In this document: in pieces, positions 8,850-22,326 of the stretch
Numbering within the stretch: the first letter of the stretch is position 1
Layout: every line of letters starts with the position of its first letter
Assembly (NCBI RefSeq): GCF_036323395.1
Contig: NZ_AP028907.1
Span: forward strand, 180,001-212,000
DNA length: 32,000 bases
Reading direction: 5' to 3'
Origin: Pyrodictium abyssi
Lineage (GTDB): Archaea; Thermoproteota; Thermoprotei_A; Sulfolobales; Pyrodictiaceae
Notes under the pieces: generated by a model
The model's input: only the letters and a program-made list of their open reading frames with translations
The model's database searches: none
Told to the model about the DNA's origin: nothing
Position numbers and translations under genes: made by a program

Positions 8850-8927
8850 GCCGCGGTAGTATAGCCCGGCCAAGTATGCGGGCCTCTCGAGCCCGTGACC
8901 CGGGTTCAAATCCCGGCCGCGGCACCA
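8850..8927 (+). tRNA. tRNA-Glu (anticodon CTC), with encoded CCA
   Basis: Hand-folded cloverleaf. Acceptor gccgcgg/ccgcggc, D stem gtat/gtat (2 G-U pairs), anticodon stem cgggc/gcccg with loop c-t-CTC-g-a, T arm ccggg-ttcaaat-cccgg, discriminator a, then cca. Confidence 0.95.
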
Positions 8928-8933
8928 ACCCTC
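8878..8933 (+). repeat. attL: 56-bp direct repeat (3' part of tRNA-Glu plus 6 nt)
   Basis: gcgggcctctcgagcccgtgacccgggttcaaatcccggccgcggcaccaaccctc is identical base for base to 23391-23446. The flanking bases differ on both sides. Confidence 0.9.
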
Positions 8934-8992
8934 CCCATACCCCACACCCGCATCCCCTAATCCATATACCGTGTCACGGAGGCTTACTCTCT

Positions 8993-9313
8993 ATGGGGGT
9001 TCAAGTGCCGCCGCTTCTGACGTCGGTGAAAGTAGAGGCGAAGATAACGTACCAAGTCAAGAAGGGCAGATACCGTTATGCCTATTTGCACATTCCCGCG
9101 AGCATTAAAGCGCTAGTTGAGGGGCGTTACTTCAAGGTTGAAAAGAAGGGCAATGTGGTCATCTATAGAATTAGCGAGCCAGGACCCAATACCTATAAGC
9201 CCGTTAGATATGGTAAGAAGTCTATCTATATCAGGCTTCCTCTAGAAAATGTTATGGCAAAGAAGGCGATAATTGAGCTGCTTCCGGACGGCTTTGCTGT
9301 TCACCTTGTTTAA
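8993..9313 (+). CDS. Hypothetical protein (possibly AbrB-like beta-rich DNA binder)
   Basis: The track ORF 8876-9313 begins inside the tRNA, so the internal ATG at 8993 (MGVQVPP...) is preferred, giving 106 aa. Two segments (YLHIPASIKALVEGRYFKVEKKGNVVIY and IYIRLPLENVMAKKAIIELLPDGFAVHL) loosely resemble SpoVT/AbrB strands; this is a weak call. Confidence 0.5.
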   Translation: MGVQVPPLLTSVKVEAKITYQVKKGRYRYAYLHIPASIKALVEGRYFKVEKKGNVVIYRISEPGPNTYKPVRYGKKSIYIRLPLENVMAKKAIIELLPDGFAVHLV

Positions 9314-9324
9314 CTTACTCTAAG

Positions 9325-9345
9325 TGTCAGAGCCCTAGTCTGACA
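9325..9345. repeat. Palindrome P1: TGTCAGA-N7-TCTGACA
   Basis: TGTCAGAgccctagTCTGACA with perfect 7-bp arms, between convergent genes. Confidence 0.85.
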
Positions 9346-9346
9346 A

Positions 9347-9426
9347 TATTCGCTACAACCCTGTAGGGGAAACCAGGAGTGCCCTCGTGTCCTAGGGGGT
9401 TTCTCCCTTCTCGAGGAGAGGGAAAC
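9347..9426 (+). repeat. Hairpin elements H0 (degenerate, 9347-9373) and H1 (9399-9426)
   Basis: H0 is tattcgctacaaccctgtaggggaaac. H1 is GTTTCtcccttctcgaggagaggGAAAC (28 nt, near-perfect dyad centred on CTCGAG). Confidence 0.85.
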
Positions 9427-10167
9427 CTACTTCTTGCTCCATTGCACCTTGAGCACTGCTGACAGCTTGCCATAGTTCTTTGCCCGCTCGAGGACCTCAT
9501 TGTAGAACTCTGCATAGGATCGCCTTATCTTGGCGTACCTCTCATAGATTTGGTCGCCTTCACGGAAGAGCCAGAACTGTATTTTCTTTACTTCGCTGCT
9601 ATCCCAGTAGAACTTGCCGTCCTCCCGCTGCTTTCTCATGTAGACTTTTGCCTCACTCATCCACCCTCTTCTCTCATCATAGTGGACTTTCCAGACTCTG
9701 GCCTTGTAGCGGTAGACGTAGCCATTTTGTATTATGCCACGCGGCAAGTGCTTCTCGCTCGTCATAGTCATTATCATAAATCCTGTCCAGGTTCTCATAG
9801 TCTCGATATGTCCCATGATTGCAACGGAGAATGGATCGTAGGGATAGCGCTTGACTATCTCCATCCAGGGACCGGCATCATCCCATACAATTAGCGGATA
9901 TCGTATTCCTTCTTTTAGTGCTTGATCTACCTTTTCTTGAAGCTCCATTGGCGTAAATATCAGTAGTTCAAACACCTTATCCCAGTCTTGTAGAAGCTCA
10001 TGGGCTATCTTCAGAGCTAGCGTGGACTTACCGCTCCCCAGCGGCCCCTCTATTACCAGGAGGAACGCGTTTTGTTTCACTATTCCCTCAATGCAGAACT
10101 GACGTGCAAGCTTTCGCCTAACGTTTTGGCAGATGTGCTTAATCTCCCACATATAGGGGTCCCCCAT
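9427..10167 (-). CDS. P-loop NTPase (AAA-like; similar in size and layout to the DnaA-like ATPases of small crenarchaeal viruses)
   Basis: Walker A EGPLGSGKSTLAL and Walker B PLIVWDDAG; 246 aa. The family assignment beyond P-loop NTPase is from memory and not verified. Confidence 0.85.
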   Translation of the reverse strand: MGDPYMWEIKHICQNVRRKLARQFCIEGIVKQNAFLLVIEGPLGSGKSTLALKIAHELLQDWDKVFELLIFTPMELQEKVDQALKEGIRYPLIVWDDAGPWMEIVKRYPYDPFSVAIMGHIETMRTWTGFMIMTMTSEKHLPRGIIQNGYVYRYKARVWKVHYDERRGWMSEAKVYMRKQREDGKFYWDSSEVKKIQFWLFREGDQIYERYAKIRRSYAEFYNEVLERAKNYGKLSAVLKVQWSKK

Positions 10168-10178
10168 TATAAAGAGCC

Positions 10179-10577
10179 TTACCAGTTCTCTTCCTCTACC
10201 TTCTTCACTCTGGATAGCTGTACATTCTGTAGTATTCTCCAGGCTTTGCCAGCAACGATGGAGAGAATCTCCTTGACGCCGCTACGTTTCTTGGCCCTCT
10301 TGAGTATCAGGTAGTTGTAGATGAATCTCTTTAGCGTAGGATCCGGGATTGTGTCTGCTATAGTCTTCAGCATGGCTAAAGTGCGGATTTCTTTATCCGA
10401 AAGCTCGGATAATGTTATTACTGCCTTGCCTTTGGGCATCGCTAGCATCTTGACGGCTATCCTCTGTGCACCAAAGAGGTCCTTATCCTCTTCGAAGTCG
10501 AAGTCTTCATCGATTTCTATATCGAAGTCGAGGGGGTCCTCTTCCTCTGCTCTTTCTCTCCTCTTACGGGCCGGCAT
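10179..10577 (-). CDS. Hypothetical protein with a highly acidic N-terminus
   Basis: 132 aa (EEEDPLDFDIEIDEDFDFEEDKD...). Tightly packed between the membrane protein and the ATPase genes, with 4-nt and 11-nt gaps. Confidence 0.6.
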   Translation of the reverse strand: MPARKRRERAEEEDPLDFDIEIDEDFDFEEDKDLFGAQRIAVKMLAMPKGKAVITLSELSDKEIRTLAMLKTIADTIPDPTLKRFIYNYLILKRAKKRSGVKEILSIVAGKAWRILQNVQLSRVKKVEEENW

Positions 10578-10581
10578 AGTA

Positions 10582-11208
10582 TCACCTTGCAGGCGCTATG
10601 GATACGTGATAGCCTAGCATGGGTAGGATAAAGAACTCCATGATGAACGCGAGAGTCATTCCGACAAGTAGCATCACGATCTGCTCTCCCTTCGTGGGCT
10701 GTATCTTGCCGACAAGCTTCTCTATTGTTCTGCTCGCAAAGTAGTTCTTGAGCACTATCGGGTGTATCATTGACGGTCCTATCTTCGCTTTACGAAGCTC
10801 TTGCTGTATCTCTTCGTCGTCGGGATCTTCGAATTCATAGACTATGTTTCTGTCCGCATCAACTATGATTACCGGCTCTGCTCTCCTACAATTGCTGTCT
10901 TTGCAGAATATGTAAGGCTCCATAGGCGGTAGCTTGTAGAGTCTTGTAGGAGTTATCAGTTCTCCGCTAGCTGTTAGCTTGCCTATGGTTTTCATGAGGA
11001 TCTTGCCGTTTCTTAGGAGAACAGTTACTCTATCCCCCCGTGTCCGCTGGAACGTCTTTACCCTGTTCAGAGCTGCGTATGCTAGCCGCATGGTTTGGTC
11101 TATTCTGGCAGTAGTTGCTATGAAGAGAACGAGTGCGAAGAATGCTATAGTTATGAGCACGTAGAGGATGCTAAGCAAAGCATCTTGTGGCAGACTCACC
11201 GGGCTCAT
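10582..11208 (-). CDS. Hypothetical membrane protein (N- and C-terminal TM helices)
   Basis: 208 aa. TM segments LSILYVLITIAFFALVLFIATTA and IVMLLVGMTLAFIMEFFILPMLG. First gene of the minus-strand operon. Confidence 0.6.
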   Translation of the reverse strand: MSPVSLPQDALLSILYVLITIAFFALVLFIATTARIDQTMRLAYAALNRVKTFQRTRGDRVTVLLRNGKILMKTIGKLTASGELITPTRLYKLPPMEPYIFCKDSNCRRAEPVIIVDADRNIVYEFEDPDDEEIQQELRKAKIGPSMIHPIVLKNYFASRTIEKLVGKIQPTKGEQIVMLLVGMTLAFIMEFFILPMLGYHVSIAPAR

Positions 11209-11305
11209 TATAGCTCCCGTAGCTCTATTGATCGTCCCTTACCTTTTCTTCGCCCTTTCCAGCTTTCATAAGCTGATGCTAGCTCACAGTTGCTAAGTCG
11301 AGAAT

Positions 11306-11330
11306 GTTTCCCTAAAGATCTAGGGGAGAA
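11306..11330 (+). repeat. Degenerate hairpin element H2 abutting a start codon
   Basis: GTTTCcctaaagatctaggggaGAAt, with inner CCCTA/TAGGG arms as in H16. Its 3' end overlaps the first base of the ATG at 11330. Confidence 0.5.
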
Positions 11331-12079
11331 TGCGAGCAATAGCACCCATTGTTGCTGCTGCAATACTAGCACTCATAGCTGGTGCTGGCATTACTGCCTA
11401 TGTGCTTTCTCGGCCCGCAGCTGAGGCTCCTCTCGCAGCTATAGGTACTGCGAACATTATCGCAAGCGTGGAGACCAGGTATATTGTTGAATACATGGTG
11501 TTTGCGAGCGATAAGATAGATCTTAAGGTGTACTTGAACGGAACAGATGTTGCAGACATATTCATCCTGGTACCTACCTCGAGTTCAGAGTACATGGTTG
11601 TCTATAACAAGTACGACTATCAAAGCGGTACTCTACTTGAGTTGAACTATATGAAGGAGTTCATAGTTCTAGCCTGGAGAGATGGCTATGTAGATGCGAT
11701 AATCGTGGACATGGAGAACCCGGCACCCGGAGAGGTACGCCTTCACACGACACATCATCCCGATCCTATGAGCTTGACGCAATATGTGAAGGTTACAAAG
11801 CGCTGGTGGGACATTCTCTGGGAGGGTTTTGCGGTACTATTTGAAATGATGACTGCCATGAAGTTTGTAATAGATATTGTCGTGGCTATGCTGCCCTATG
11901 CCGGAGCTATGTGGTCTGTCTGGCTTGTCTCCGCCATTTCGAAAGCGCTTAGAGACATGAGCATTGAACCTCTGATAGACTTCTTCTATAAGAACTACCA
12001 AATAGTGAGAGGGATAGTATCGGCAGTTACGCAGATAGTGCTCAAGATAATAGACTTGATAACCGGGCCGGCAACATAA
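11330..12079 (+). CDS. Hypothetical membrane protein
   Basis: 249 aa. N-terminal TM (AIAPIVAAAILALIAGAGITAYVL), a central soluble domain and C-terminal hydrophobic helices. Confidence 0.65.
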   Translation: MRAIAPIVAAAILALIAGAGITAYVLSRPAAEAPLAAIGTANIIASVETRYIVEYMVFASDKIDLKVYLNGTDVADIFILVPTSSSEYMVVYNKYDYQSGTLLELNYMKEFIVLAWRDGYVDAIIVDMENPAPGEVRLHTTHHPDPMSLTQYVKVTKRWWDILWEGFAVLFEMMTAMKFVIDIVVAMLPYAGAMWSVWLVSAISKALRDMSIEPLIDFFYKNYQIVRGIVSAVTQIVLKIIDLITGPAT

Positions 12080-12083
12080 CGTT

Positions 12084-12175
12084 ATTTCGCCTACAGGATC
12101 TCTGATGAAATCTTGCTTTCTACATGATTTCGCTATCCTCGAGAAGGAGAAACATGTCAGACTGATACTCTGACA
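12084..12175 (+). repeat. Hairpin elements H3 (12084-12111) and H4 (12127-12153), plus palindrome P2 (12155-12175)
   Basis: H3 is ATTTCgcctacaggatctctgatGAAAT. H4 is ATTTCgctatcctcgagaaggaGAAAC. P2 is TGTCAGActgatacTCTGACA (perfect). They lie between convergent genes. Confidence 0.85.
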
Positions 12176-12195
12176 GTCTCTACGAAAAGAGGATA

Positions 12196-12300
12196 TCATG
12201 TAAGGATGTCTGCCACGAGCTTTGCAAGCCTGTAGCCCAAGTAGCCGGCAAATCCGGCAGCAAATGCGTAGATAACAACTTCAAAGGGCTCTAAGCTCAA
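12196..12300 (-). CDS. Possible 34-aa hydrophobic peptide
   Basis: Hand-found. A TTG at 12300 overlaps the end of the upstream ORF (12281-12589). Translation is (M)SLEPFEVVIYAFAAGFAGYLGYRLAKLVADILT plus a stop. The only support is TM-like composition and start/stop overlap. Confidence 0.2.
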   Translation of the reverse strand: MSLEPFEVVIYAFAAGFAGYLGYRLAKLVADILT

Positions 12301-12589
12301 CCTCCCGCACCTCCTCGAGCATTTGATTCCCTACTGCGATTCCCTTCTGCCTTAGTAATTCCATTAGTTTCCTTGCTCGAGGATCGTCCTCGGGCTCAAC
12401 CCATACTACTAGCCTGTATTCCTCTGGTGGATGTTCATCTTTTTCCACAAAGAGCCAGGCTGATAGCTTTATCATAAGCTGTGGCACGTTTCTACCTCTG
12501 AAAGTTCTCTGGGCAGCTATCGTTGAGCGTCTACGGTGTATTAAGGCAGCTCTTACGGTTATAGGAGGTGTGCGTGGCGGTCCTCCCAT
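12281..12589 (-). CDS. Hypothetical protein
   Basis: 102-aa ORF with a basic N-terminus and an acidic C-terminal half. No recognisable family. Confidence 0.5.
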   Translation of the reverse strand: MGGPPRTPPITVRAALIHRRRSTIAAQRTFRGRNVPQLMIKLSAWLFVEKDEHPPEEYRLVVWVEPEDDPRARKLMELLRQKGIAVGNQMLEEVREVELRAL

Positions 12590-12683
12590 TAATGTGTCCC
12601 TTTACTCCTGTTTAGAGCCCGGTAAGCCGTGTTAAGCTTGTCGAGCTAATGTAAGCTGGTTCTAGTTCGCGGCTCAAGTATAG

Positions 12684-12995
12684 TTGTTGTTGGAGTTAGA
12701 ACGCATGGAGATGGGTATGTCTTTTATGAAACGGGTGAAGGAGAAGCTAGCTAAAGTAGGTCAAGAGTTCAAGGCACGGGCTAAAGCGATAGCAGTAGCG
12801 ACCCTAGGCATAGGGACAACTTTGCTAACTAAGGTGGCGCACGCTCAGACAACCATAGATACCAGTAGCATGACGGAGATGATATCAGCATTCCTACCGA
12901 TAATAATGAGCTTATTCGCTATAATGATTCCGCTAATGTTCTTTGGTAAGATAATGGAGTTCTTTGAGAGGCTACTACGCAGCTTTGGCGGCTAA
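12684..12995 (+). CDS. Small two-TM membrane protein (candidate virion/envelope protein)
   Basis: The likely start is one of the ATGs at 12705-12726. It has a signal-like TM (AIAVATLGIGTTLLTKVAHA). Its C-terminal anchor MTEMISAFLPIIMSLFAIMIPLMFFGKIME is paralogous to the anchor of the next gene. Confidence 0.65.
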   Translation: MLLELERMEMGMSFMKRVKEKLAKVGQEFKARAKAIAVATLGIGTTLLTKVAHAQTTIDTSSMTEMISAFLPIIMSLFAIMIPLMFFGKIMEFFERLLRSFGG

Positions 12996-13000
12996 TATCG

Positions 13001-13693
13001 GTGATAAGTATGCTAAGGCGGCTACTAGCAGTCTTTTTGGTGGCTCTTATAGCATTCAGCACCGTAGCAGCGGCGCAGACAGAGGTGCTAGTTCCCAGCG
13101 ACGTTAGCGGTCCGATGTGGTGGGACTTCAATGCACAAACGCCTACGGTGATTAAGCTACTGCCGAACCTACCAGGACCAGCGCCTAATGCAAGCGACAA
13201 CCTGCGAATCGGCTTCGTAACACAGACAAAAGAGGCCGGCGGAACATACGAGGTCATAACAATCCGCTTCAAGATAAACGGCATGATGACTGTAGGCAGT
13301 CCTAGGTATGGTGTGCCGGACCAGGAAGTGGCCCAGTGGAGTAACAATGAGACTGTAAAGGTTGTCATATTTGGCAACACTATGGAGGTATATGTAGGCA
13401 GCACTAAGGTATGGAGCTATGAGGCGAGCGAAGAGATCCCGGACATAAACTACGTGTATGCGGATAGCGCTACATTCGGAGTGCCGGCATTCGAAGGCGG
13501 CGGATACATAAAGATATACGTGGATGAGGAGGAGCTAAACTCCATCCTAATAAACTATCAAATGCGGGAAAGCATGAACGCGACAATGGAGCTCTTCACA
13601 GCGTTTATGCCGCTGTTGATGGTATTCGCAATATTCGGAATGTTTATGAAGTTCATGGGCAAGATAATGAATACGTTGGGGAGAGCATTTTGA
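13001..13693 (+). CDS. Secreted protein with a C-terminal membrane anchor
   Basis: Signal peptide LLAVFLVALIAFSTVAAAQ, a beta-rich ectodomain of about 170 aa, and the anchor TMELFTAFMPLLMVFAIFGMFMKFMGKIMN. Confidence 0.7.
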   Translation: MISMLRRLLAVFLVALIAFSTVAAAQTEVLVPSDVSGPMWWDFNAQTPTVIKLLPNLPGPAPNASDNLRIGFVTQTKEAGGTYEVITIRFKINGMMTVGSPRYGVPDQEVAQWSNNETVKVVIFGNTMEVYVGSTKVWSYEASEEIPDINYVYADSATFGVPAFEGGGYIKIYVDEEELNSILINYQMRESMNATMELFTAFMPLLMVFAIFGMFMKFMGKIMNTLGRAF

Positions 13694-14742
13694 AACCCAT
13701 AGCTCTTTTTATAGCGGTTCTTCTCCCCCTAGGCCTAATCGTTACTGCGCATGCTGAGCAGAATCCTATAGTAGCTGTCTACTTCTACGCATGGTATGGT
13801 GAGGGATTAGGAGGGAGACATTGGAACGACTCAGCTTATACGCCCATCGTGGATGAGCCGCTGATAGGCTACTATAGCAGCCTAGACCCGGACACGATCG
13901 AGTGGCAGCTAAGGCTACTCAAGCAAGCAGGCATAGACGTACTCTTCATAAGCTGGTGGGGCCCCAATAGCTACGAAGATAGAGCAGCTAGACTGGTCTT
14001 CGAGAACCTGAAGCGCTTCGACCTGAAGGCCGCTATACTGGTCGAGCCCTATCTGGGAGGAGATCCTAGCCTCTACGACTACGAGTGGTGGCTTCAAGTA
14101 CTAGATTACATAAAGAAGAACTACATAGATAAGTATCCGAGCGTCTACTTCCGCTGGGAGGGCAAGCCGCTAGTACTAGCGTACAACCCCATAGGGATGA
14201 AGTGCCGACCAAACACAGACGAGTTCACGGTGAGGATAGTCGGCAACGACATAGACAATGCTGGCTACCAGGACTGGGACCTATGGCCAGACTACCTAGC
14301 CCCATGGACCACAGACAAGCCCATAGAGCTCAGAGTACGACAGGACGGCTACGTGGCCATAGCACCACGCTTCGACGACAGGGTATTCTGCGAGCTAGGC
14401 GTAAGGACTGGCTGTGATCAAAGGCTCTTGGATCCAAATTACACGCTTCAAGCCTACGTGAAACAATGGGAGTGGATACTTCAGCATAAGGATCAAGTAA
14501 GGCTCATAGCGATTTATAGTTGGAACGAATATCACGAGCGCAGCCAGATAGAGCCTCATTACGACGCAACAAAGCCGGAGCCGCTGGTTTACGATCCCTA
14601 TGCATTAACAAGAGCATACACCGAGAAACTGCGCGGTATCGAGTATAGTAAAGAGTACAAAGCTTTAGCCCAGGGTCTAGGACAGATAATGGGTGTTGCC
14701 TTCCTTGCAGGTGCGGCTGCGCAGTTTATCCGGCGGGCTTAG
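13690..14742 (+). CDS. GH99-like glycoside hydrolase (endo-alpha-mannosidase family), secreted and C-terminally anchored
   Basis: Signal peptide, then VYFYAWYG...HWN, IGYYSSLDPDTIEWQLRLLKQAGIDVLFISWWGP, LKAAILVEPY and IAIYSWNEYHERSQIE. From memory these parallel the human MANEA motifs FYYSWYG...HWN, LGSYSSRDPSVIETHMRQMRSASIGVLALSWYPP, HIEPY and ITSFNEWHEGTQIE. The TTG start overlaps the previous stop (TTGA). Confidence 0.8.
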   Translation: MKPIALFIAVLLPLGLIVTAHAEQNPIVAVYFYAWYGEGLGGRHWNDSAYTPIVDEPLIGYYSSLDPDTIEWQLRLLKQAGIDVLFISWWGPNSYEDRAARLVFENLKRFDLKAAILVEPYLGGDPSLYDYEWWLQVLDYIKKNYIDKYPSVYFRWEGKPLVLAYNPIGMKCRPNTDEFTVRIVGNDIDNAGYQDWDLWPDYLAPWTTDKPIELRVRQDGYVAIAPRFDDRVFCELGVRTGCDQRLLDPNYTLQAYVKQWEWILQHKDQVRLIAIYSWNEYHERSQIEPHYDATKPEPLVYDPYALTRAYTEKLRGIEYSKEYKALAQGLGQIMGVAFLAGAAAQFIRRA

Positions 14743-14768
14743 TTTCTCTCCTCGATCCCTGGCGAAAC
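14742..14768 (+). repeat. Hairpin element H5
   Basis: GTTTCtctcctcgatccctggcGAAAC (27 nt). It starts at the last base of the GH99-like stop codon. Confidence 0.8.
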
Positions 14769-14803
14769 ACCTTGCAGTCTCAGCTCTGATTCTCCATGCT
14801 GCC

Positions 14804-15028
14804 ATGGGGCTCTATCTGGCTTGTTTAGCAGCCATTTACGATTCTACTAATATGGGATTTGTTCTTCTCATAGCATACCCGGTGCTTACCGTTAGTCTCT
14901 GGATAACTAAGCCACATGCAATGTTAGCCTTCATGGTTCTAATTGCAGCTTCCCTAAGCTTTCTTAAGCTGTTATGGACTCGAAGGTATCATTTCAAGTT
15001 ATTTGTAAGGCGTATTCTAGGGGGCTAA
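14804..15028 (+). CDS. Small hydrophobic membrane protein
   Basis: The track ORF 14693-15028 overlaps the GH99 gene and H5. The internal ATG at 14804 gives a 74-aa protein with 2-3 TM segments (MGLYLACLAAIYDS...). Confidence 0.45.
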   Translation: MGLYLACLAAIYDSTNMGFVLLIAYPVLTVSLWITKPHAMLAFMVLIAASLSFLKLLWTRRYHFKLFVRRILGG

Positions 15029-15895
15029 TTGGGCAAGAAGAAGAAAAAGGTCTACTTTGGCGATGATAGTATCTTCAAGGCGGTCAAGGACATAGGTAGA
15101 AAGGGGTTAAACACACGAGAGGAATTCATTGAATTAGTTGCTGCGCAAGTTCTCGACCTAGCAGATCTTAGGACTAGGAGAAATACTGGCCGGCCCGCTA
15201 AATGGACACTACAGCTCTGGAACCAACGCTGTTTTGTACTGAGAGAGTTGAATAAGAGGAAACGGTTTGGTCTGGCAGCTTTCGTAAGGAAAGCTTGCAG
15301 TCTTGGCAGGCGCATTCTGAGGTCTAAGGATAAGCTGCCTTACTACAAGCGTCTCAAGATACTTGCGAAATTCGGTATGTGGGTCTCCGAGAAGTATGGT
15401 GTCTCTCCTAGGACGCTTGCTCACATAATAAGGCGCGTGAATGAGAACGAGCGGCTTGTCCGTAAGCTTACGGAGTTCTTCTATCGGGAGCTTGGCAGGG
15501 AATTCAAGAGGCGTGGCATTTCTCCCCGTGTTGCTACTAGGCGTCTGAAGAAGCATATACGGCGTATAAGGAGCCTCTTCAACGATGAGGATAAACGTAT
15601 TGCTGCCTATCTCTGGGATATGATTCCAAAAAAGTATAGAAGCGGAGCCCGGAGGCTCTGGACTTATCTTCTAGTTCTTCACCTAGCAAGATGGATTCGC
15701 AAAAAGGCTAAGGAGTCTGGTGTTGATTGGCGCGATATTGACTGGGCAGCTGAGATCGACTGGAGACAGGGCTATTACTATGCTAAGAGCCGTGTCTTCG
15801 AGCTGTTAGGAATGCTAGGGAGTAAATACGAGGGTCTAACTGAGGAGGAGATTGAACAGATGATGGAGTACTGGGCTCAGAATGAGCGTATATGA
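15029..15895 (+). CDS. Highly basic protein with a helix-turn-helix-like segment
   Basis: 288 aa, with a TTG start immediately after the previous stop. Lys/Arg-rich; YGVSPRTLAHIIRRVN resembles an HTH. No family recognised. Confidence 0.7.
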   Translation: MGKKKKKVYFGDDSIFKAVKDIGRKGLNTREEFIELVAAQVLDLADLRTRRNTGRPAKWTLQLWNQRCFVLRELNKRKRFGLAAFVRKACSLGRRILRSKDKLPYYKRLKILAKFGMWVSEKYGVSPRTLAHIIRRVNENERLVRKLTEFFYRELGREFKRRGISPRVATRRLKKHIRRIRSLFNDEDKRIAAYLWDMIPKKYRSGARRLWTYLLVLHLARWIRKKAKESGVDWRDIDWAAEIDWRQGYYYAKSRVFELLGMLGSKYEGLTEEEIEQMMEYWAQNERI

Positions 15896-15988
15896 GCTAT
15901 CGTGAGCTTTCTTCAGCTTCACTAAGCTCTCGGAGAATCTGGCTGTGGATAGCGTATTCCGCTACCTTTTCTCCACCCGCTGAGAGCC

Positions 15989-18040
15989 ATGGTGCGTATA
16001 AGAGCCCTTCTAATACTAGCCCTCCTCCTAGTGCCCCTTGTCGGCCCAGTAATGCCGGCACACGCAGCAACAATACCGATAAGCGAAGTCGATGAAGCTA
16101 TCAGACTTGGCGTAGAAGCAGTATATCGAGCAGTAAGGCCCGTGGACACTTCATTCAGCAAGTATGTTATGCCAGACCACCCTAGCCCAACAATCTCAAT
16201 AGCGTATAATGGAAAGCTCTACGTGCCTGGCAGCTTCTTTGATCCCGGCGACTCCATCTATAAGACAGAACTCGTAAAAGTATCCAACAACATGGTAGCA
16301 TGGAGGTACTACTTCAATATAGACGACGACGATGACTACGATGTAGTAATCTATGCGGAGCTAACAAACATCGACTATAACATCGACAGGCTATACATCT
16401 ACATCGATAAGGCCGAATACAACATAGATGTCTATGTCGGCGCCTACTCCCCCTATAAGTACTTCAACGTCGGACAGGGATGGAGCACAACAATAGATAT
16501 CAACGACTGGAACAAGTACAAGTTCCACTCAGCTCGCTATGTTGCACGCCACAGCACCAGAATAGCCGCATGGCTGCTAGAGGATGAGGGAGCAAGCTAT
16601 ACTGCAAGCAAACTTCATAATCTCATGAATGGGTGTGGCTACACCTACGACGTATACGCTCCGATATTCGGGCGCAGCACCAGCTATCCCGACGACTTCT
16701 TTACTAGAGATGCTACATGGCTTGGCAACGGCTACAGCTGCCTACCATGGACTCTGAGCAAATACAGCTACTTCCTCAACTACCCCTACAAGAGCCGCAT
16801 GTACATATTCGACGCCTTTAGCAGCTATACCTATCATGCAGCCCTAAGAGCGTGGGAAGAGGCTCCACTAGCAAATCTGCTTAAGGCAATGCATCTTCTC
16901 GACAAGTATGGTGCCTCCAGAGCTAGCGAAGCTGAGCAGCTAATAGCCCAGGTAATTGAGGACGGGAAATGGGACGGCTACGGCATAAAGTACGCCTCCA
17001 TAGATGCCGGCTATGTAGCATCCGGCTACCACACCGGCCCCGAGATTCCTTATGGCTACGCGGGCTATCCCGTATACCTAAACGCAGCTCTGCTAGCTGC
17101 GCTAGTGAAATACTACCAGGTAACGGGAGACCGCTGGATAGCCGGCAACGATATACTCTACATGGCTGACAGGCTTGCCGGTATACTAGTGAAGCTTCAG
17201 TGGAAGTATGAGCACAAGACTCCATGGGGCTACGTGAGGCTAGCACTATTCCGCGGATGGTGGCCGGCGGCATACGAGATAGGCAGCCTAATCAGCAAGT
17301 CTAGCGCCTGGGGCATAATAGACACACTAACCCACACAGCCGACAACGTGGCCGGAATCCTGGCTAAAGTCGGCATAGACTTTCCCTCCGAGGCTCTGAG
17401 GCCTATGCCCAGCGAGTGGCCATTCGCAATAGTGAACAGCGAGTCTACAATACTCGCTATCCAGGCTCTGAAGCTCTACAGGCAGCTTGGCAGAGAGCCC
17501 ATAGACCCCATATCAGACGTAATAGCCGGGTTTGACGGCATCTTCGTGGAGAGTGGCGGTGGCGGGTATGCAGCGATAGGAGGCAGTCATGGCGGTGAGA
17601 CAAGCGATGACGGCCGCTGGATAGTAGCAAGCGCACTAGTTCCCGGTCTAAGCGGCGACGCATGGCATTACCAATACGCCAAGTTTAAGTTCAATCTGGA
17701 GAGCAGCGGCTACTACAAGCTGCGGATAGCGTCAATGGTCTCATATAATGGAAAAGACAGCTATGGCTCTAGCGCCTATGTCTACCTTGTCGTCAAGTTA
17801 CTGAACGCCTATGGTAATGTTGTTGCACAAGTAGAGAAGCTCGTAGACCATGTAGACGAGAACACGCTATTCAACAAGGCAAAGGCTGTAACCGTAGAGC
17901 TTGACACCGGCTACCTCACCAGCGGCACCTACTACGTCGAGATAGGGCTCAAGGTCGTGGCTGACAATAGCCCCATAAGCTGGGAGGGCGTGTGGATAAA
18001 CGGTAAGGTAGTAAACGATGAGATAGTTATAGCGCAGTAA
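15989..18040 (+). CDS. Large secreted protein (candidate virion adhesin or host-recognition protein)
   Basis: 683 aa. Signal peptide LLILALLLVPLVGPVMPAHA, an acidic run IDDDDDYDVV, Tyr/Asn-rich beta regions and a central helical region. No TM anchor. Confidence 0.8.
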   Translation: MVRIRALLILALLLVPLVGPVMPAHAATIPISEVDEAIRLGVEAVYRAVRPVDTSFSKYVMPDHPSPTISIAYNGKLYVPGSFFDPGDSIYKTELVKVSNNMVAWRYYFNIDDDDDYDVVIYAELTNIDYNIDRLYIYIDKAEYNIDVYVGAYSPYKYFNVGQGWSTTIDINDWNKYKFHSARYVARHSTRIAAWLLEDEGASYTASKLHNLMNGCGYTYDVYAPIFGRSTSYPDDFFTRDATWLGNGYSCLPWTLSKYSYFLNYPYKSRMYIFDAFSSYTYHAALRAWEEAPLANLLKAMHLLDKYGASRASEAEQLIAQVIEDGKWDGYGIKYASIDAGYVASGYHTGPEIPYGYAGYPVYLNAALLAALVKYYQVTGDRWIAGNDILYMADRLAGILVKLQWKYEHKTPWGYVRLALFRGWWPAAYEIGSLISKSSAWGIIDTLTHTADNVAGILAKVGIDFPSEALRPMPSEWPFAIVNSESTILAIQALKLYRQLGREPIDPISDVIAGFDGIFVESGGGGYAAIGGSHGGETSDDGRWIVASALVPGLSGDAWHYQYAKFKFNLESSGYYKLRIASMVSYNGKDSYGSSAYVYLVVKLLNAYGNVVAQVEKLVDHVDENTLFNKAKAVTVELDTGYLTSGTYYVEIGLKVVADNSPISWEGVWINGKVVNDEIVIAQ

Positions 18041-18058
18041 GCCCCTAGCTCTTTTTTC

Positions 18059-18107
18059 CTTTCCTCTTCTGCCTGTATGTGAAACTTGTCAGACTCTAGT
18101 TCTGACG
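18059..18107 (+). repeat. Degenerate hairpin H6 (18059-18085) plus palindrome P3 (18087-18107)
   Basis: H6 is cTTTCctcttctgcctgtatgtGAAAC. P3 is TGTCAGActctagtTCTGACg. Confidence 0.75.
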
Positions 18108-18191
18108 CTAGTTCTAAATCGGAATAAGAAGCAGAGGAGAAGCGGGCTCAGCGATTATCTCATCATTACCCGCTTTGCCCGGTGGCCCGCT

Positions 18192-19166
18192 ATGCCCCAG
18201 AGTAACACGTCTCGAAGAGATAGTAGAGAACCTAGCCCTGGTACTGCACAAGGACACTACCGGCCTAGCGAGCTCATTCTACGCTATATAGTTGAAGAGA
18301 AGGTCTCCTTCTTCCGGCTCGAGGAGATACGCTACTGGGCAAAGAAGCGCTACGGAGTAGACATAGACAGGAGGAGGCTCCATGATGCGGCAAAGAGGCT
18401 TACTGCTCGGGGCGTCTTCGAGAAGCCTTCGAGAGGCCTATATCATGTAAAAGACTGGGCAGCTGTCCACATGCTAGTTTCACTCTCCTCGAGAAAGAGA
18501 AACAATGAAGCCCTTGAGGGCCAAGAAGGGATTCACCTACAGGCTAGAGGTGAAAACGTCCTTGAGCCGCGTCAGAACATGAGTCGGACGGACGCGGGCG
18601 CGGCGGGGCGGGCTGGGCGGCGGGTGTCTGAGCGGTGTTCTGACAGGTTGCGGCGGTTTGTGCCTGTTCTCGCTACGGAGGAGGGGTGTTGGACGGTTCT
18701 TCGCTGGCATCTTAATGCGCGTCGGGAGAGGGTTTGGGACTGGCTGTGGGATCTCTTCGAGAGGGCGGTTGCTTTTCGGGAGCTATTCTCTTGGATTGTT
18801 AGATGGCTTAGGGAGGAGCTGCACCGTATGGGGGCGTCTAAGTACGAGATCCGGAGGCGGGTTAGGCGGGTTCTGCAGCGTGTTAGGAGGCTGCTTTCGA
18901 GGGTTAGGCCCGTGATTGGTGCTCATTATAGGAAGAGGTTCTGGCCCCTGGGGGATCTTCTCCGCTTGTTTGGTGCTGAGGAGAGGCTGCCCAGGATGGA
19001 GTTCGGGGTAGAGCTTTGGGCTTGCGGTGAGGGGGCGGTGGAGGCTGCGCGGGAGGGCTACGAGGTCTTTGGGAGCCAGGACGTGTATACTCCGAACGCA
19101 TACAAGCATAATACTCCGGAGCATGCTCAGTATAGGCTGCGGCTGCGTTATCATCCTAGGCACTAG
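18192..19166 (+). CDS. Hypothetical protein: N-terminal winged-helix-like domain plus an Arg/Trp-rich C-terminal half
   Basis: 324 aa. LILRYIVEEKVSFFRLEEIRYWAKKRYGVDIDRRRLHDAAKRLTARGVFEKPSRGLYHV looks like a wHTH. Composition changes sharply after about 18590. Contains hairpin H7 in frame. Confidence 0.65.
   Translation: MPQSNTSRRDSREPSPGTAQGHYRPSELILRYIVEEKVSFFRLEEIRYWAKKRYGVDIDRRRLHDAAKRLTARGVFEKPSRGLYHVKDWAAVHMLVSLSSRKRNNEALEGQEGIHLQARGENVLEPRQNMSRTDAGAAGRAGRRVSERCSDRLRRFVPVLATEEGCWTVLRWHLNARRERVWDWLWDLFERAVAFRELFSWIVRWLREELHRMGASKYEIRRRVRRVLQRVRRLLSRVRPVIGAHYRKRFWPLGDLLRLFGAEERLPRMEFGVELWACGEGAVEAAREGYEVFGSQDVYTPNAYKHNTPEHAQYRLRLRYHPRH
18477..18503 (+). repeat. Hairpin element H7 (intragenic)
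   Basis: GTTTCactctcctcgagaaagaGAAAC (27 nt), in frame within 18192-19166, where it encodes VSLSSRKRN. Confidence 0.75.
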
Positions 19167-19167
19167 G

Positions 19168-19260
19168 ATTTCGCTTCTTAGCCTGTATGCGAAACGCTAG
19201 GGGACGCTAGGTTTCTCCTGTCGACAACACTGCGAAATCTGTCAGAGCGGGGCTCTGACA
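19168..19260 (+). repeat. Hairpin elements H8 (19168-19195) and H9 (19211-19238), plus palindrome P4 (19240-19260)
   Basis: H8 is ATTTCgcttcttagcctgtatgcGAAAC. H9 is GTTTCtcctgtcgacaacactgcGAAAT. P4 is TGTCAGAgcggggcTCTGACA (perfect). Confidence 0.85.
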
Positions 19261-19326
19261 AGGTAAGTGGATTAGCTTCGCTTTGCACCGGCTTACGGTT
19301 TAGTAGCTGTTATTCGGTCATCGGGC

Positions 19327-20457
19327 TTGTCAGAGTTGGGCTCTGACGCTGGTTTTGTAGCCTTCGAGGGGCAAATAGGAAGGTGGGTGCTCTTTGTGGA
19401 GGGGAGGGTTAAGGTTGCTAGGCTGGTGGAGATAGACGGTAGGCCCTACGTAGTGATAGACGGCGCGTTGATCCCCATTGAGGTTTCGCCCGGGAGCTCG
19501 CAGGCGAAACAGGAGAGGCCGGAGCTTCGCTTTGAGCTGAGTGAAGAGGTCCTCGAGCGCTACCGTAGGTGGCTTCCCAGCGAGCAACGAAGTTACCGAG
19601 CCAGGGACCCGGAAACCATAGAGAAGTATATCAGCTATTTAAAGAAGTTCTATGAGTGCAGTAATGGGGTTATATCGCCTGAGACGATTATGAAGTGTGT
19701 TACGAATAAGCACTATGTGAGGGCGTTAAGAGCGTTCGTGGAGATGTTGAGGTACTATGGAGAGGTGTCGCGGCACCTGGCTCTTGAGATCCTTGAGAGG
19801 CTTAGGTGGAGCCGGAATGATAGGATTGGCGAGGATATTGTTCCGGTTTCCCGGGTGCTCGAGAGCATAGCATTCGTCGAGGAGGAAGGGCTTCCGCTGT
19901 ACCAGCTGCTCTATAGGGCTATGCTCTATAGTGGCGGTATCCGGCTGGAGCAGTTCTTCGAGCTAGTGCCCTACGAGGATCATTACTGGCTGTGGAGGGG
20001 AGCGGAGCCCCGGCCCTTTGGCAGGTATAACGCTGTTAAGGCTCTCGAGGACCGTGGGGTAGCCTCGAAGCCTGTGGACCATATATGGCTGCCTGAGGAG
20101 GTTTACCGGGGGCTTAGGGGGCTTGATCCTGATTTCCTTCCGAAGCCGGGAGCGGCTAGGAAGTTCTATAGCCGGCATAAGCTGGTAGGCCCGACATTGA
20201 TTCGTAGCTTCTGCTGGCAAGTTGCGAAGTTTCTCCTGCCCGACAAGAATCTTGCTAGGATGCTGCAGGGGAGGCTTGGAGAGCTTAAGCGCGAGGTATC
20301 CGCGGGGAGCTATGACGCGCTCCGTTATCAGCTCGATCAGCTATACCCGCTTTGGATGCGCTTCGTGGACAGGCTCTACGAGGCGGCCAGGCGTGGTAAG
20401 CCTCTCGAGGAGGCGCGGAGGATAGTCGCTGAGTACCGCTTGCCCCTCCCACCTTAG
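19327..20457 (+). CDS. int: Tyrosine recombinase (integrase), intact
   Basis: 376 aa. Core-binding-like helices (IEKYISYLKKFYE..., ALRAFVEMLRYYG). Candidate catalytic residues are LYSGGIRLEQ (Arg I), TLIRSFCWQ (Arg II), MLQGRLG and SAGSYDAL (Tyr). The exact start is uncertain: TTG 19327 lies inside palindrome P5. Confidence 0.85.
   Translation: MSELGSDAGFVAFEGQIGRWVLFVEGRVKVARLVEIDGRPYVVIDGALIPIEVSPGSSQAKQERPELRFELSEEVLERYRRWLPSEQRSYRARDPETIEKYISYLKKFYECSNGVISPETIMKCVTNKHYVRALRAFVEMLRYYGEVSRHLALEILERLRWSRNDRIGEDIVPVSRVLESIAFVEEEGLPLYQLLYRAMLYSGGIRLEQFFELVPYEDHYWLWRGAEPRPFGRYNAVKALEDRGVASKPVDHIWLPEEVYRGLRGLDPDFLPKPGAARKFYSRHKLVGPTLIRSFCWQVAKFLLPDKNLARMLQGRLGELKREVSAGSYDALRYQLDQLYPLWMRFVDRLYEAARRGKPLEEARRIVAEYRLPLPP
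19328..19348. promoter_or_regulatory. Palindrome P5 overlapping the annotated integrase start
   Basis: TGTCAGAgttgggcTCTGACg. Same family as P1-P4, positioned at the 5' end of int. Confidence 0.6.
19483..19510 (+). repeat. Hairpin element H10 (intragenic, in int)
   Basis: GTTTCGCCcgggagctcgcaGGCGAAAC (28 nt, 8-bp perfect arms, central GAGCTC), in frame, encoding VSPGSSQAKQ. Confidence 0.8.
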
Positions 20458-20459
20458 CG

Positions 20460-20487
20460 GTTTCGCCTAGGAGCTCGTTGGTGAAAC
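20460..20487 (+). repeat. Hairpin element H11
   Basis: GTTTCgcctaggagctcgttggtGAAAC (28 nt). It starts 3 nt after the integrase stop. Confidence 0.85.
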
Positions 20488-20494
20488 TGGGGCT

Positions 20495-20575
20495 GGGCCG
20501 CGGGGATGATGAGTACGGCAGGATCGGATCCGTGAAGAGCGGACTTAACGCTGACCCTCCCGGGACCCGCGGCCC
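20495..20575 (+). ncRNA. Dual-guide C/D box sRNA candidate (core 20506-20554)
   Basis: C box ATGATGA (20506-12), 12-nt guide gtacggcaggat, D' cgga, 3-nt linker, C' gtgaaga (20532-38), 12-nt guide gcggacttaacg, D box CTGA (20551-54). This is the canonical archaeal 7-12-4-3-7-12-4 layout. A perfect 9-bp outer helix (gggccgcgg 20495-503 with ccgcggccc 20567-75) encloses it. Both guides are complementary to conserved 16S rRNA segments (see findings). Confidence 0.6.
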
Positions 20576-20753
20576 TCTGGTTTACCCTACTCTATACTAA
20601 GAGGTATATGGGTTGCGCCCGGCTATACTATAGTGTACTCGAGGGCCCGGCTGCCCCTCTCGACGGGTCGGGGACCCGGGGTGAAGGGATGAGCCGGCCC
20701 GGGAGGCGGGGATTGTCGTGAACCGCCTCCTTCAATGCTCTGACACTCCTAGG

Positions 20754-20876
20754 GTTTCCCCTTCTCGATCCCTGGGGAAACCGGGCCCTGGCGGGGGGTT
20801 TCGCCTTCCTCGAGGAGGGTGAAACCGGCCCTTCCCCTGGAGGGTAGGGTTTCGCTTACAGGCCTGTATGTGAAAT
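20754..20876 (+). repeat. Hairpin elements H12 (20754-20781), H13 (20798-20825) and H14 (20849-20876)
   Basis: H12 is GTTTCcccttctcgatccctgggGAAAC. H13 is GTTTCgccttcctcgaggagggtGAAAC. H14 is GTTTCgcttacaggcctgtatgtGAAAT. A TCTGACA half-site lies at 20739-20745. Confidence 0.85.
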
Positions 20877-20920
20877 AGTGTCGGCTTCCTCTTTCTGTCC
20901 ACCAAAAACAATAAGTAGGT

Positions 20921-20932
20921 GTAACTAGTTAC
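20921..20932. promoter_or_regulatory. Perfect 12-bp palindrome GTAACTAGTTAC upstream of the small-gene operon (candidate operator)
   Basis: It lies between an A-rich TATA-like stretch (aaaaacaataag, about 20904-20915) and the GTG/ATG starts at 20949/20958. Confidence 0.4.
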
Positions 20933-20948
20933 GACTACTTGGCTGCGG

Positions 20949-21269
20949 GTGTGGGGTATGGGGAGTCTACGGGAGGCTCTCATCTTCCTCGCAAATAAGC
21001 CTCAAGCGCTACGTCTTCTCCGCGAGGCTGCGAGGTACAAGGCTTCAAAGGGTAAGCCGCCGTACACTAGAGAGCTTCTCAAGCTGGCAGCCAACGGGGA
21101 CCGCGGCTACAGTATGCGGCTGCTAGAGGAGCTGCAGGCGCTGGGGCTTCTGCGGCGCTACCGGGATTATCTTAGCGATAAGCTGCGCATACCTGTTGTC
21201 CGCAACGATCCCACACCTTTGGCTCACAAGGTTCTAGCACTCTTCGAGGAGGAGGATGAAAATGCCTAG
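20949..21269 (+). CDS. Winged-helix DNA-binding protein
   Basis: 106 aa (GTG 20949 or ATG 20958). TRELLKLAANGDRGYSMRLLEELQALGLLRR looks like an HTH plus wing. Acidic tail. Confidence 0.65.
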   Translation: MWGMGSLREALIFLANKPQALRLLREAARYKASKGKPPYTRELLKLAANGDRGYSMRLLEELQALGLLRRYRDYLSDKLRIPVVRNDPTPLAHKVLALFEEEDENA

Positions 21270-21708
21270 GCCTCCACGGCTTGATAAGGTAATAGCGTTT
21301 GCCCATAAGCTGGCTAGCGATCTTGAGGTAGGGTATCGGGAGCTTGCCGGGATTCGTGGGGAGCTTCTGCGCGTCTCTGAGCTTCTGCGGGATGTCGAGG
21401 TTCTGGAGGCTAGTGTGATCGAGAAGAGTAGGAATGGCTCGGTGTACAGGGTTCTGCAGGTGAAGAGGCCTGGGACGGGCTTTTTCGAGGGAGGCGTGCT
21501 GTCTGTCTATGTTACCCGTAAGCCCGAGCTTGGCGATCTTGTAGTGAGGCTTGTTCATCTCCGTAATGTCTATGCTGAGTGGGTTAAGGCTACTATTAGC
21601 TTGCTTGACGCGTTGGAGAGGACTCCTAGCTTGCTTGAGGAATACAAGCGGCTTGTTTCTCCTACAGGATCTCCGGCGAAACAGGAGGTGAGGGCTCGTG
21701 GATCCTAG
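21256..21708 (+). CDS. Hypothetical protein
   Basis: 150 aa. The start overlaps the previous gene by 14 nt. Contains H15 in frame near its 3' end. Confidence 0.6.
   Translation: MKMPRPPRLDKVIAFAHKLASDLEVGYRELAGIRGELLRVSELLRDVEVLEASVIEKSRNGSVYRVLQVKRPGTGFFEGGVLSVYVTRKPELGDLVVRLVHLRNVYAEWVKATISLLDALERTPSLLEEYKRLVSPTGSPAKQEVRARGS
21655..21682 (+). repeat. Hairpin element H15 (intragenic)
   Basis: GTTTCtcctacaggatctccggcGAAAC (28 nt), in frame, encoding VSPTGSPAKQ, and followed by aggagg. Confidence 0.8.
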
Positions 21709-21847
21709 GGAGCTTGCGGAGATTGAGCAGGAGCTGAGAGAGGCTCGAGAGTTCTTCGCAGAGCGGGGGTACTGGCTCATGGTCTGGTACATAGACGATA
21801 CACTGAGGCTAATAGAGAGGATGAAGGAGGGGAGGAGTAATGGCTCT
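21698..21847 (+). CDS. Possible 49-aa ORF
   Basis: Hand-found. GTG 21698 overlaps the preceding stop region. Translation is VDPRELAEIEQELREAREFFAERGYWLMVWYIDDTLRLIERMKEGRSNGS. Its stop overlaps the RHH gene start (ATG 21840). Support comes only from operon packing. Confidence 0.25.
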
Positions 21848-22049
21848 TAGAACGATCACCGTTAAGCTCGATGACGAGATTGTATCTCTTCTCGACGACA
21901 TCTATAGGAAGCTTGGCTACAATTACCGCAGCGATGTAATAAGAGAAGCACTGGAGGATTGGCTGCGGCGGCATGGATTCAAGGTTAACCTCAGCGTTTC
22001 TCGACCAAGGCATAATGATAGAGGTCTAGTGTTTGAGGTGGAGGTGTAG
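21840..22049 (+). CDS. Ribbon-helix-helix (CopG/Arc/MetJ-type) transcriptional regulator
   Basis: MALRTITVKLDDEIVSLLDDIYRKLGYNYRSDVIREALEDWLRRHG has the classic beta-strand, helix, helix pattern. Confidence 0.8.
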   Translation: MALRTITVKLDDEIVSLLDDIYRKLGYNYRSDVIREALEDWLRRHGFKVNLSVSRPRHNDRGLVFEVEV

Positions 22050-22052
22050 ACC

Positions 22053-22313
22053 ATGACCAGGCTATATCTCTGCGGGTGCTGGCTCGAGGTTAAGGACTGC
22101 AGCTTGCACAAGGCATTGCTGAGGAGTCTTGCCGACATCTACGAGCATGACGTGCTACTCATGGAGGGTGCGCCGGTCTCCATCGACTGTAGGCGGCTGG
22201 CCGCGGACTTCGAAGAGTTCCTGCACGACTATGGTGCCCGGCACTGCCGCGTCGAGCCCGTCGATCCGGCTGAGTGGCGCCGCCCCGAGGAGACGCTACT
22301 TCCGACATTCTAG
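22053..22313 (+). CDS. Hypothetical Cys-containing protein
   Basis: 86 aa. Starts 3 nt after the RHH stop. No family recognised. Confidence 0.55.
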   Translation: MTRLYLCGCWLEVKDCSLHKALLRSLADIYEHDVLLMEGAPVSIDCRRLAADFEEFLHDYGARHCRVEPVDPAEWRRPEETLLPTF

Positions 22314-22326
22314 GGGGTGGGTGGCT

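Follow-up and report, generated by a model that had tools for sequence, protein, structure and literature searches.

The window analysed here is a stretch of 32,000 nucleotides (nt) from the archaeon Pyrodictium abyssi (contig NZ_AP028907.1, positions 180,001 to 212,000), and the gene under study encodes a glycoside hydrolase (GH) homologue of 350 amino acids (aa) that lies inside an integrated virus. A preliminary description, made from the sequence alone, had proposed a membrane-anchored relative of the endo-alpha-mannosidases of family GH99, encoded by a mobile element. The open reading frame (ORF) and the motifs quoted for it are present exactly in the translation: YFYAWYG..RHWN at aa 31-46, GYYSSLDPDTIEWQLRLLKQAGIDVLFISWWGP at aa 60-92, VEPY at aa 118-121 and SWNEYHERSQIE at aa 277-288. 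The mobile element is there as well, delimited by direct repeats of 56 nt at a tRNA-Glu gene and resembling the guttavirus APOV1. As judged from alignments, the protein is a genuine but divergent branch of GH99 whose predicted catalytic machinery is intact.

GH99 comprises retaining, endo-acting alpha-mannosidases and mannanases that use two glutamates and proceed through a 1,2-anhydro-sugar (epoxide) intermediate. The Pfam profile of the family (PF16317, Glyco_hydro_99) matches the window protein at 56.3 bits (E=3.8e-15), above its curated cut-off (GA) of 33, in two blocks when the single sequence is used and over the whole domain with a family profile. Two other profiles stay below threshold, namely WbsX (PF14307; 24.4 bits vs a GA of 25.1, over aa 258-291 only) and GH71 (PF03659; 13.4 bits vs a GA of 34), the DYGE motif of the latter being absent and EYHE standing in its place. 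A database search brought together 145 homologues, nearly all of them with a precomputed PF16317 match, and 81 were aligned (alignment A1); taken individually, these match PF16317 without exception, 41 of them weakly match WbsX and a single one matches GH71. Against the PDB, phmmer with the single sequence recovered BtGH99 (4acy, 1.7e-12), human MANEA (6zdc, 6e-8) and also BxGH99, and the A1 family profile extended these matches to the whole catalytic domain, at 2e-23 for BtGH99 and about 1e-16 for both BxGH99 and MANEA. NCBIfam profiles gave no match for the protein, and PHROGs no significant one.

The AlphaFold2 model built from A1 (mean pLDDT 93.6, pTM 0.86) is made of alternating strands and helices. 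When it was compared with the PDB by Foldseek, ranks 1-36 were all occupied by GH99 crystal structures (E 8.9e-17 to 1.4e-13, TM-score 0.54-0.65), followed by GH71 enzymes at about 1e-9 and by unrelated TIM-barrel glycosidases above 1e-5. The TM-scores are moderate because the query retains its signal and anchor segments and has a shorter domain, the catalytic part falling about 50 residues short of that of Bt, Bx and MANEA, whose structures are solved. The same program, run against the BFVD viral structures, returned giant-virus and other TIM-barrel proteins (E~1e-11) and none from an archaeal virus. Altogether, the family assignment announced in the preliminary description can be held with high confidence, for the sequence as for the fold.

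The motifs that define GH99 have been listed by Sobala 2023 as EW[H/G]E, H[I/L]EPY, position 189 and Y323 (PMC11025385). In BxGH99, E333 acts on the 2-OH and E336 is the acid (PMC6001782), and position 189 of the MANEA numbering corresponds to the aromatic residue of the -2 subsite, a Trp for mannose and a Tyr for glucose, whereas Y323 of MANEA is dispensable for catalysis according to the same authors (PMC11025385). The alignment places E280 of the window protein opposite Bx E333 and MANEA E404, and E283 opposite Bx E336 and MANEA E407. E280 occurs in 81/81 sequences of A1 and E283 in 80/81; W278, N279 and E288 are invariant, and the whole N-E-x-H-E-R-S-x-I-E-P block is essentially so. A similar conservation is found around the -2 subsite, where S88, W89 and G91 are retained by all 81 sequences and W90 by 80, and in the VEPY block, where E119 is present in every one of them and is followed by P/A and Y/F. 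A catalytically competent enzyme is what these alignments make probable.

Concerning topology, the signal peptide and the C-terminal membrane anchor of the preliminary description are both supported by hydropathy segments (aa 1-22 and aa 329-347) that recur in the family: of the 81 homologues, 76 begin with a hydrophobic segment, and 55 end in a hydrophobic tail with basic residues behind it. The model draws the anchor region as a helix (aa 321-349), and the AxA motif would set signal cleavage after AHA. Hydropathy and family conservation together point to a catalytic domain placed outside the cell and held there by its C-terminus. Upstream lies the 230-aa ORF, whose TGA stop and the TTG start of the GH gene overlap by 4 nt (TTGA). 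Contig L091, another genome of this virus type in which the genes come in the same order, shows an identical overlap. This speaks for translational coupling of the GH gene to that of the upstream membrane protein and for TTG as the true start. A comparison of the GH genes of the window and L091 gives a dN/dS (ratio of nonsynonymous to synonymous divergence) of 0.086, with a dS of 1.56, near saturation; the gene is under strong purifying selection.

Table 1. Positions, in the window, of the GH99-like gene, its predicted protein features and the surrounding provirus
Feature	Positions	Strand	Basis or remarks
tRNA-Glu(CTC), integration target	8850..8927	+	ARAGORN
attL, 56-nt direct repeat	8878..8933		100% identical to 23391-23446; duplicates the tRNA-Glu 3' half
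APOV1-like (betaguttavirus-like) provirus, about 14.5 kb	8934..23390		Collinearity with APOV1, L003 and L090; att repeats
P-loop ATPase, homologue of APOV1 orf19-247	9427..10167	-	31% identity; weak STAND/NACHT P-loop matches
Small hydrophobic protein, homologue of APOV1 orf12-85	12684..12995	+	57% identity
230-aa protein, signal-like N-terminus and C-terminal transmembrane segment	13001..13693	+	Homologue of APOV1 orf11-222
GH99-like glycosidase gene	13690..14742	+	350 aa, stop included, TTG start; ORF and translation
Signal-peptide-like N-terminus, aa 1-22, MKPIALFIAVLLPLGLIVTAHA followed by EQ	13690..13755	+	Kyte-Doolittle hydropathy 2.4
SWWG, aa 88-91	13951..13962	+	W90 aligns with the -2 subsite residue: TWW (Bt/Bx), SWY (MANEA Y189)
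VEPY, aa 118-121, counterpart of H[I/L]EPY	14041..14052	+	Aligns to FHIEPF / FHLEPY
NEYHE, aa 279-283, predicted catalytic pair E280 and E283	14524..14538	+	Aligns with NEWHE of 4acy, 4ad1 and 6zdc
C-terminal hydrophobic anchor (predicted), aa 329-347, GLGQIMGVAFLAGAAAQFI, then RRA	14674..14730	+	Kyte-Doolittle 1.5; Gly/Ala-rich
Palindrome, 27 nt, GTTTC-N17-GAAAC, abutting the GH stop codon	14742..14768		One of 10 provirus copies
683-aa secreted protein, homologue of APOV1 orf9-678	15989..18040	+	55% identity
attR, 56-nt direct repeat	23391..23446		Identical to attL

The limits of the provirus (Table 1) are underscored by its relatives and by the host genes around it. GC content is 53-59% in the left flank and 47-50% over 9-17 kb; host genes border the element, with S19e and EMG1/Nep1 to its left and DUF1122 and AhpC to its right, and the NOG1 GTPase of the host flank shares 86% identity with that of Pyrodictium delaneyi, 68% with Hyperthermus butylicus and 50% with Pyrolobus fumarii, which marks the host as a hyperthermophile of Pyrodictium type. 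In an environmental contig (L088; JGI 3300034049, contig Ga0373972_0298) the same 56-nt att core occurs at 5963-6018 between homologues of the two end genes of the element, the order being right-half homologues, core and then, directly, the leftmost-gene homologues, which by its sequence corresponds to the attP site of a relative in circular or episomal form. Such a junction with an identical core indicates that 8934-23390 is one single, complete provirus. The possibility that the right half (18-23 kb, of higher GC and devoid of APOV1 matches) was a separate element was considered and rejected, L088 joining its genes to both the 683-aa gene and the att junction. Megablast of the element against the INPHARED phages gave no match, APOV1 being found at the protein level only. 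To our knowledge, this may be the first provirus with clear boundaries to be described in a Pyrodictium-like host. The L088 sequence upstream of the att core looks tRNA-like and recalls the virus-borne tRNA-Glu of Aeropyrum globular virus 1.

Ten ORFs of the window match APOV1 in order, with identities from 23-25% for the weakest to 57%; their counterparts are orf19-247, orf18, orf17, orf16, orf13, orf12-85, orf11-222, orf10-284 (the GH, 50%), orf15 and orf9-678. A block made of a small hydrophobic ORF, a protein of about 210-230 aa, the GH99-like protein and a protein of about 680-720 aa is found in APOV1, in a provirus of a 'Ca. Calypsonella' metagenome-assembled genome (MAG; L003/L004/L023) and in another of a Desulfurococcaceae MAG (L090). 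The latter keeps the block although its large protein is 41% identical, and there it adjoins an integrase gene of SSV type and a gene resembling VP2 of fuselloviruses. The family of the large protein counts no more than 22 clusters in a set of 5.8 billion proteins and seems confined to APOV1-like elements, and several contigs apparently carry a member of it along with the GH99-like protein, in one case as adjacent locus tags (F7C36_00350 and F7C36_00355). From the recurrence of the block and from these shared contigs it follows, as far as sequence comparison can tell, that the GH99-like gene belongs to the conserved core of a small APOV1-like provirus lineage of Desulfurococcales. In the window and L091, the GH gene and the large gene are separated by two extra genes, which are lacking there in APOV1, L003 and L090.

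The preliminary description had placed the gene in the middle of a presumptive structural module. What stands of this is its location within a run of membrane and secreted proteins, since over 11330-18040 the 249-aa, 103-aa, 230-aa, GH, 111-aa and 683-aa products have signal-like N-termini and/or transmembrane segments; that this block is the structural module is plausible. Its small hydrophobic product (12684..12995) is a candidate capsid or envelope protein, for which a major capsid role may be proposed.

The AlphaFold2 model of the 683-aa protein (pLDDT 86.7) has beta-sandwich domains at both termini and a helical one in the centre. Foldseek provided no match for the whole protein; its beta-sandwiches weakly resemble carbohydrate-binding modules (CBMs), the sugar-binding domain of Fbs1 and the tips of phage tail fibres and tailspikes (E 4e-6 to 1e-3). 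A GH76-like (alpha/alpha)6 core, as in VP4 of SSV19, had been expected in it and no such match was obtained. These resemblances hint at a receptor-binding or fusion protein of largely new architecture. Between the window and L091, dS rises from 0.25 in the 288-aa gene through 0.58 in the ATPase to 1.3-1.6 in the 230-aa and GH genes, which suggests a mosaic recombination that would be concentrated in, and would replace, the surface-protein genes.

The GH gene has already been known to the field through the annotation of APOV1, and the finding is in this sense incremental. Indeed, 'a glycoside hydrolase' is mentioned among the APOV1 ORFs in the ICTV Guttaviridae profile, where guttavirus virions are described as enveloped and APOV1 as having a major capsid protein of 10.5 kDa, its ORF unnamed in the text, and two minor ones (PMC5882108). 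The earlier statement that no archaeal-virus GH99 was known thus holds for characterised enzymes, but the homologue had been listed; in the part of the literature that was searched, no paper linking GH99 with archaeal viruses was found. Both copies are known from sequence alone. The APOV1 protein is 48-50% identical to that of the window (53% over the catalytic domain), and they share a position between homologous genes (orf11-222 and orf9-678), an Ala-rich C-terminal anchor and the PF16317 match. APOV1 differs in its host (Aeropyrum vs Pyrodictium) and its integration site (tRNA-Leu vs tRNA-Glu), its GH belongs to another clade of the family, and the window alone of the two has the extra genes before the large one. 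The annotated orf10-284 of APOV1 (HE580237, L001; 5348-6300, minus strand) begins at an internal Met (MREAGIDC...), with the frame open upstream across a hydrophobic stretch and the conserved blocks VYFYPWYSG..RHWD and GLYDSRD, and tblastn aligns past the annotated start; the annotation thus lacks the signal peptide and the first barrel strand or strands, and the true start is probably a non-ATG codon.

Among enzymes of solved structure, the bacterial ones (BtGH99, 4acy/4ad0; BxGH99, 4ad1/5m03) share with the window protein the (beta/alpha)8 fold, the pair of catalytic glutamates, the Trp of the -2 subsite and the blocks YxWYG..HW, P-x-G-x-YSS, (S/T)WW, EPY/F, GKPL and NE-x-HE-x-x-QIEP. They differ in having EWHE and a His before (I/L)EP, and in belonging to a polysaccharide-utilisation locus of Bacteroides, whereas the window protein has a C-terminal transmembrane anchor and an archaeal viral setting. 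Human MANEA is similar in its catalytic motif and in being tethered to a membrane with the catalytic domain on the non-cytoplasmic side; unlike the window protein, it has an N-terminal anchor (type II), a Tyr189 associated with glucose preference where the window has Trp, and a -2 loop D[E/D]NGE with no counterpart here (PMC11025385). The GH71 alpha-1,3-glucanases (AnGH71C, 9fnf; Agn1, 8yfh) belong to the same clan and have the same barrel, and the Tyr of EYHE recalls their DYGE, a motif by which they are set apart from the window protein, whose PF03659 score is far below the cut-off. On the viral side, the tailspike VP4 of SSV19 contains a GH76-like endo-mannanase core that has been proposed to bind or degrade S-layer glycans (PMC9351363). 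SSV19 is, like APOV1, a crenarchaeal virus, with a mannanase-like module, and its family, the Fuselloviridae, is linked to APOV1 in gene-sharing networks; in VP4, however, an (alpha/alpha)6 fold of GH76 type forms a domain of a virion spike, and in the window the enzyme is a separate membrane-anchored protein. Annotated glycoside hydrolases are also found in tristromaviruses and some rudiviruses; they were not detected with the window GH as query.

From these data a role in the infection cycle can be proposed. The GH protein would be exported by its N-terminal signal peptide and held by its C-terminal helix on the outer face of the membrane, either in the virion envelope, where it may sit because guttavirus virions are enveloped, or in the membrane of the infected cell. 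There it would cleave mannose-containing glycans of the host surface, carried by the S-layer or by other N-glycoproteins, and the clearing or destruction of these glycan receptors would aid entry or release, or would block re-adsorption and superinfection. The enveloped nature of guttaviruses, the neighbouring 683-aa protein with its CBM- and tail-fibre-like domains, and the mannanase domain of SSV19 count in favour of a role on host glycans. To the whole chain, that is, an exported, anchored and active GH99-type endo-glycosidase acting on mannose-containing host-surface glycans to the benefit of the virus, we assign a probability of roughly 0.55; taken by itself, the alpha-mannoside substrate would have about even odds.

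Several observations weigh against this proposal, and they concern the enzyme as well as its distribution. Identity to the characterised GH99 enzymes is 17-21%, as seen across the 36 Foldseek matches, and the C-terminal segment is moderately hydrophobic, weaker than the N-terminal one. A literature search for N-glycan structures of Aeropyrum and Pyrodictium found nothing specific. In the active site, the second position of the EWHE motif is Tyr in 72/81 sequences (as in the EYHE of the window) and Phe in 8/81, and the H[I/L]EPY motif is partly present, its His being replaced by Leu117 in the window and by Leu or Met across the clade. The tyrosine known as Y252 in Bx and Y323 in MANEA is not clearly conserved: the Bx stretch G-F-Y-T-Y252-F faces Y193-Q-D195-W196 (YxDWDLWP) in a gapped region of the profile alignment where the register is uncertain, and no clear equivalent of Bx R295 was seen in the family-profile alignment. 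From the deviations at EYHE, at the missing His and at the Y323/Y252 position, it follows that the specificity of the clade could differ from that of characterised GH99 enzymes. Taken further, the protein would belong to a distinct subfamily of the GH99/GH71 clan acting on a non-mannoside alpha-glycan, alpha-glucan-like or built from an archaea-specific sugar, and the name endo-alpha-mannosidase would be a misnomer. Such a reading is favoured by the same substitutions, EYHE being intermediate between the EWHE of GH99 and the DYGE of GH71, by the shorter domain, by the weak WbsX matches of half of the members and by GH71 as second-best fold. Nevertheless, the glutamates keep the GH99 spacing (E-x-x-E), W90 and the YxWYG..HW and GxYSS blocks are retained, and the GH71 profile stays far under its threshold; we consider this alternative somewhat unlikely.

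The distribution of the family raises a different objection. Searched for in one genome per GTDB species, it yielded 200 relatives. Desulfurococcales, Acidilobaceae, Aeropyrum and Staphylothermus have them, as do, at a greater distance, Bathyarchaeia, Nitrososphaerales and some Dehalococcoidia; the genomic context was checked for the best 78 loci. About 73 of these 78 are without the viral module and mostly in cellular-looking contexts, some contigs being short; another gene of the module within 10 kb is found only at L023 (the contig of L004), L027 and the fragment L077. The chromosomal copy of A. pernix lies among housekeeping genes, between L13e/TtuA and ZnuABC; the P0016 copy lies between a tRNA synthetase and an amidohydrolase, the L010 copy (75% identical) is followed by HD, MarC, GT4 and Asn-synthase (AsnS) genes, and the L002 copy (57%) has no other gene of the element nearby. 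Among the 2.9 million viral contigs of IMG/VR, a relative is carried by APOV1 only. Moreover, the catalytic domain of the window copy shares 82% identity with that of P0003, 78% with that of P0004 and 64-65% with those encoded in the Aeropyrum chromosomes, vs 53% with that of APOV1 and 52% with that of the Calypsonella provirus, the last two being 64% identical to each other; a rough neighbour-joining tree, drawn without support values, places the window copy accordingly with the host-type copies and apart from the APOV1/Calypsonella clade. L006, found in a MAG of P. delaneyi, is the closest copy (81%); it has ribbon-helix-helix (RHH) and bPH/SHOCT neighbours, as in L086, and no APOV1-type genes. 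The host-type identity, the context of L006 and the two extra genes suggest that viruses of the Pyrodictium type carry an allele exchanged with a host-type gene.

Given these contexts and this allele, the GH may simply keep a cellular function. The gene would then be a captured cellular one, serving lysogenic conversion or another host-type activity, such as the scavenging of extracellular mannose glycans or the remodelling of the cell's own surface, outside the infection cycle. We regard this as unlikely: the gene occupies a fixed place between the membrane protein of about 220 aa and the protein of about 700 aa, even where the latter has diverged, in the manner of a core gene and not of a moron; many copies of the viral clade apparently come from contigs that also encode a homologue of the 683-aa protein; and its translation appears coupled to that of the upstream gene.

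A third possibility, which we see as quite improbable, is that the enzyme trims the N-glycans of the virus's own envelope proteins, for maturation or to prevent self-aggregation, as MANEA acts on N-glycans or neuraminidase on haemagglutinin and neuraminidase. By its predicted topology it would share a compartment with the exported products of the neighbouring viral genes, and the eukaryotic GH99 is a glycoprotein-processing enzyme, but glycosylation of the viral proteins is hypothetical and the existence of cellular homologues speaks for a broader substrate. Finally, a catalytically dead, lectin-like attachment protein, for which there are probable precedents among GH99 paralogues (fish CMANEAL, E404Q) and which would suit a virus surface, is highly improbable in view of the near invariance of both glutamates and their surrounding block in 81 sequences and of the strong purifying selection.

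Returning to an enzyme that acts on host-surface glycans, a more specific and rather doubtful version of it would make the protein, on the envelope of the ovoid virus or on the infected cell, a receptor-destroying glycosidase comparable to influenza neuraminidase or to the tailspike depolymerases of phages, with repeated swapping with the host allele tracking the variation of host glycans. According to a 2024 review, archaeal viruses have so far provided no identified enzyme that hydrolyses the S-layer (PMC10791045). If the proposal is true, this would be the first archaeal-virus enzyme shown to hydrolyse host S-layer or surface glycans, and the family offers a tractable candidate for the way in which enveloped crenarchaeal viruses cross a glycosylated S-layer. 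The protein, small and single-domain, would also be a hyperthermostable representative of GH99. Furthermore, at least six related elements widen a virus family known from one sequenced genome.

Some minor observations deserve mention. Distant homologues from Bathyarchaeia and Nitrososphaerales (P0069-P0087, P0113 and others) end in an IPEFPSF-hydrophobic-KRK tail that is PEF-CTERM-like, the PEF-CTERM profile TIGR03024 remaining below threshold on these tails (E 0.013-0.06), and a group of homologues of about 480 aa has an added coiled-coil region before the transmembrane anchor.

Within the provirus, the ORF at 8876-9313 as listed starts inside the tRNA/att sequence, and its homologues in L088 (91%) and L091 (71%) match from about residue 37 onwards; its true start is probably near 8990 (MGVQVPP...), the first 36 codons or so being an artefact of taking the longest ORF. 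A 376-aa ORF (19327-20457), 73% conserved in L088, has no Pfam match and presents a weak pairwise similarity to the SSV-type integrase of APOV1 (E=0.004), near a possible box-I Arg. If it is an integrase, it would be a very divergent one and, unlike the usual genes of SSV type, unsplit by integration; integrases of PF16795 are present in the relatives L003 and L090.

Lastly, the palindrome that abuts the GH stop codon (GTTTC-N17-18-GAAAC, 27-28 nt, e.g. GTTTCTCCCTTCTCGAGGAGAGGGAAAC) has 10 copies, all inside the provirus, vs 0.09 expected, at 9399, 14742, 18477, 19483, 20460, 20754, 20798, 21655, 23066 and 23100, with an imperfect copy at 12082. It often lies directly 3' of stop codons, and it is common to the closest relatives, L088 (with one identical copy) and L089, and absent from APOV1, L003 and L090. 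It may act as a hairpin that terminates transcription, or as the operator of a regulator of the RHH or winged helix-turn-helix (wHTH) type encoded by the virus.

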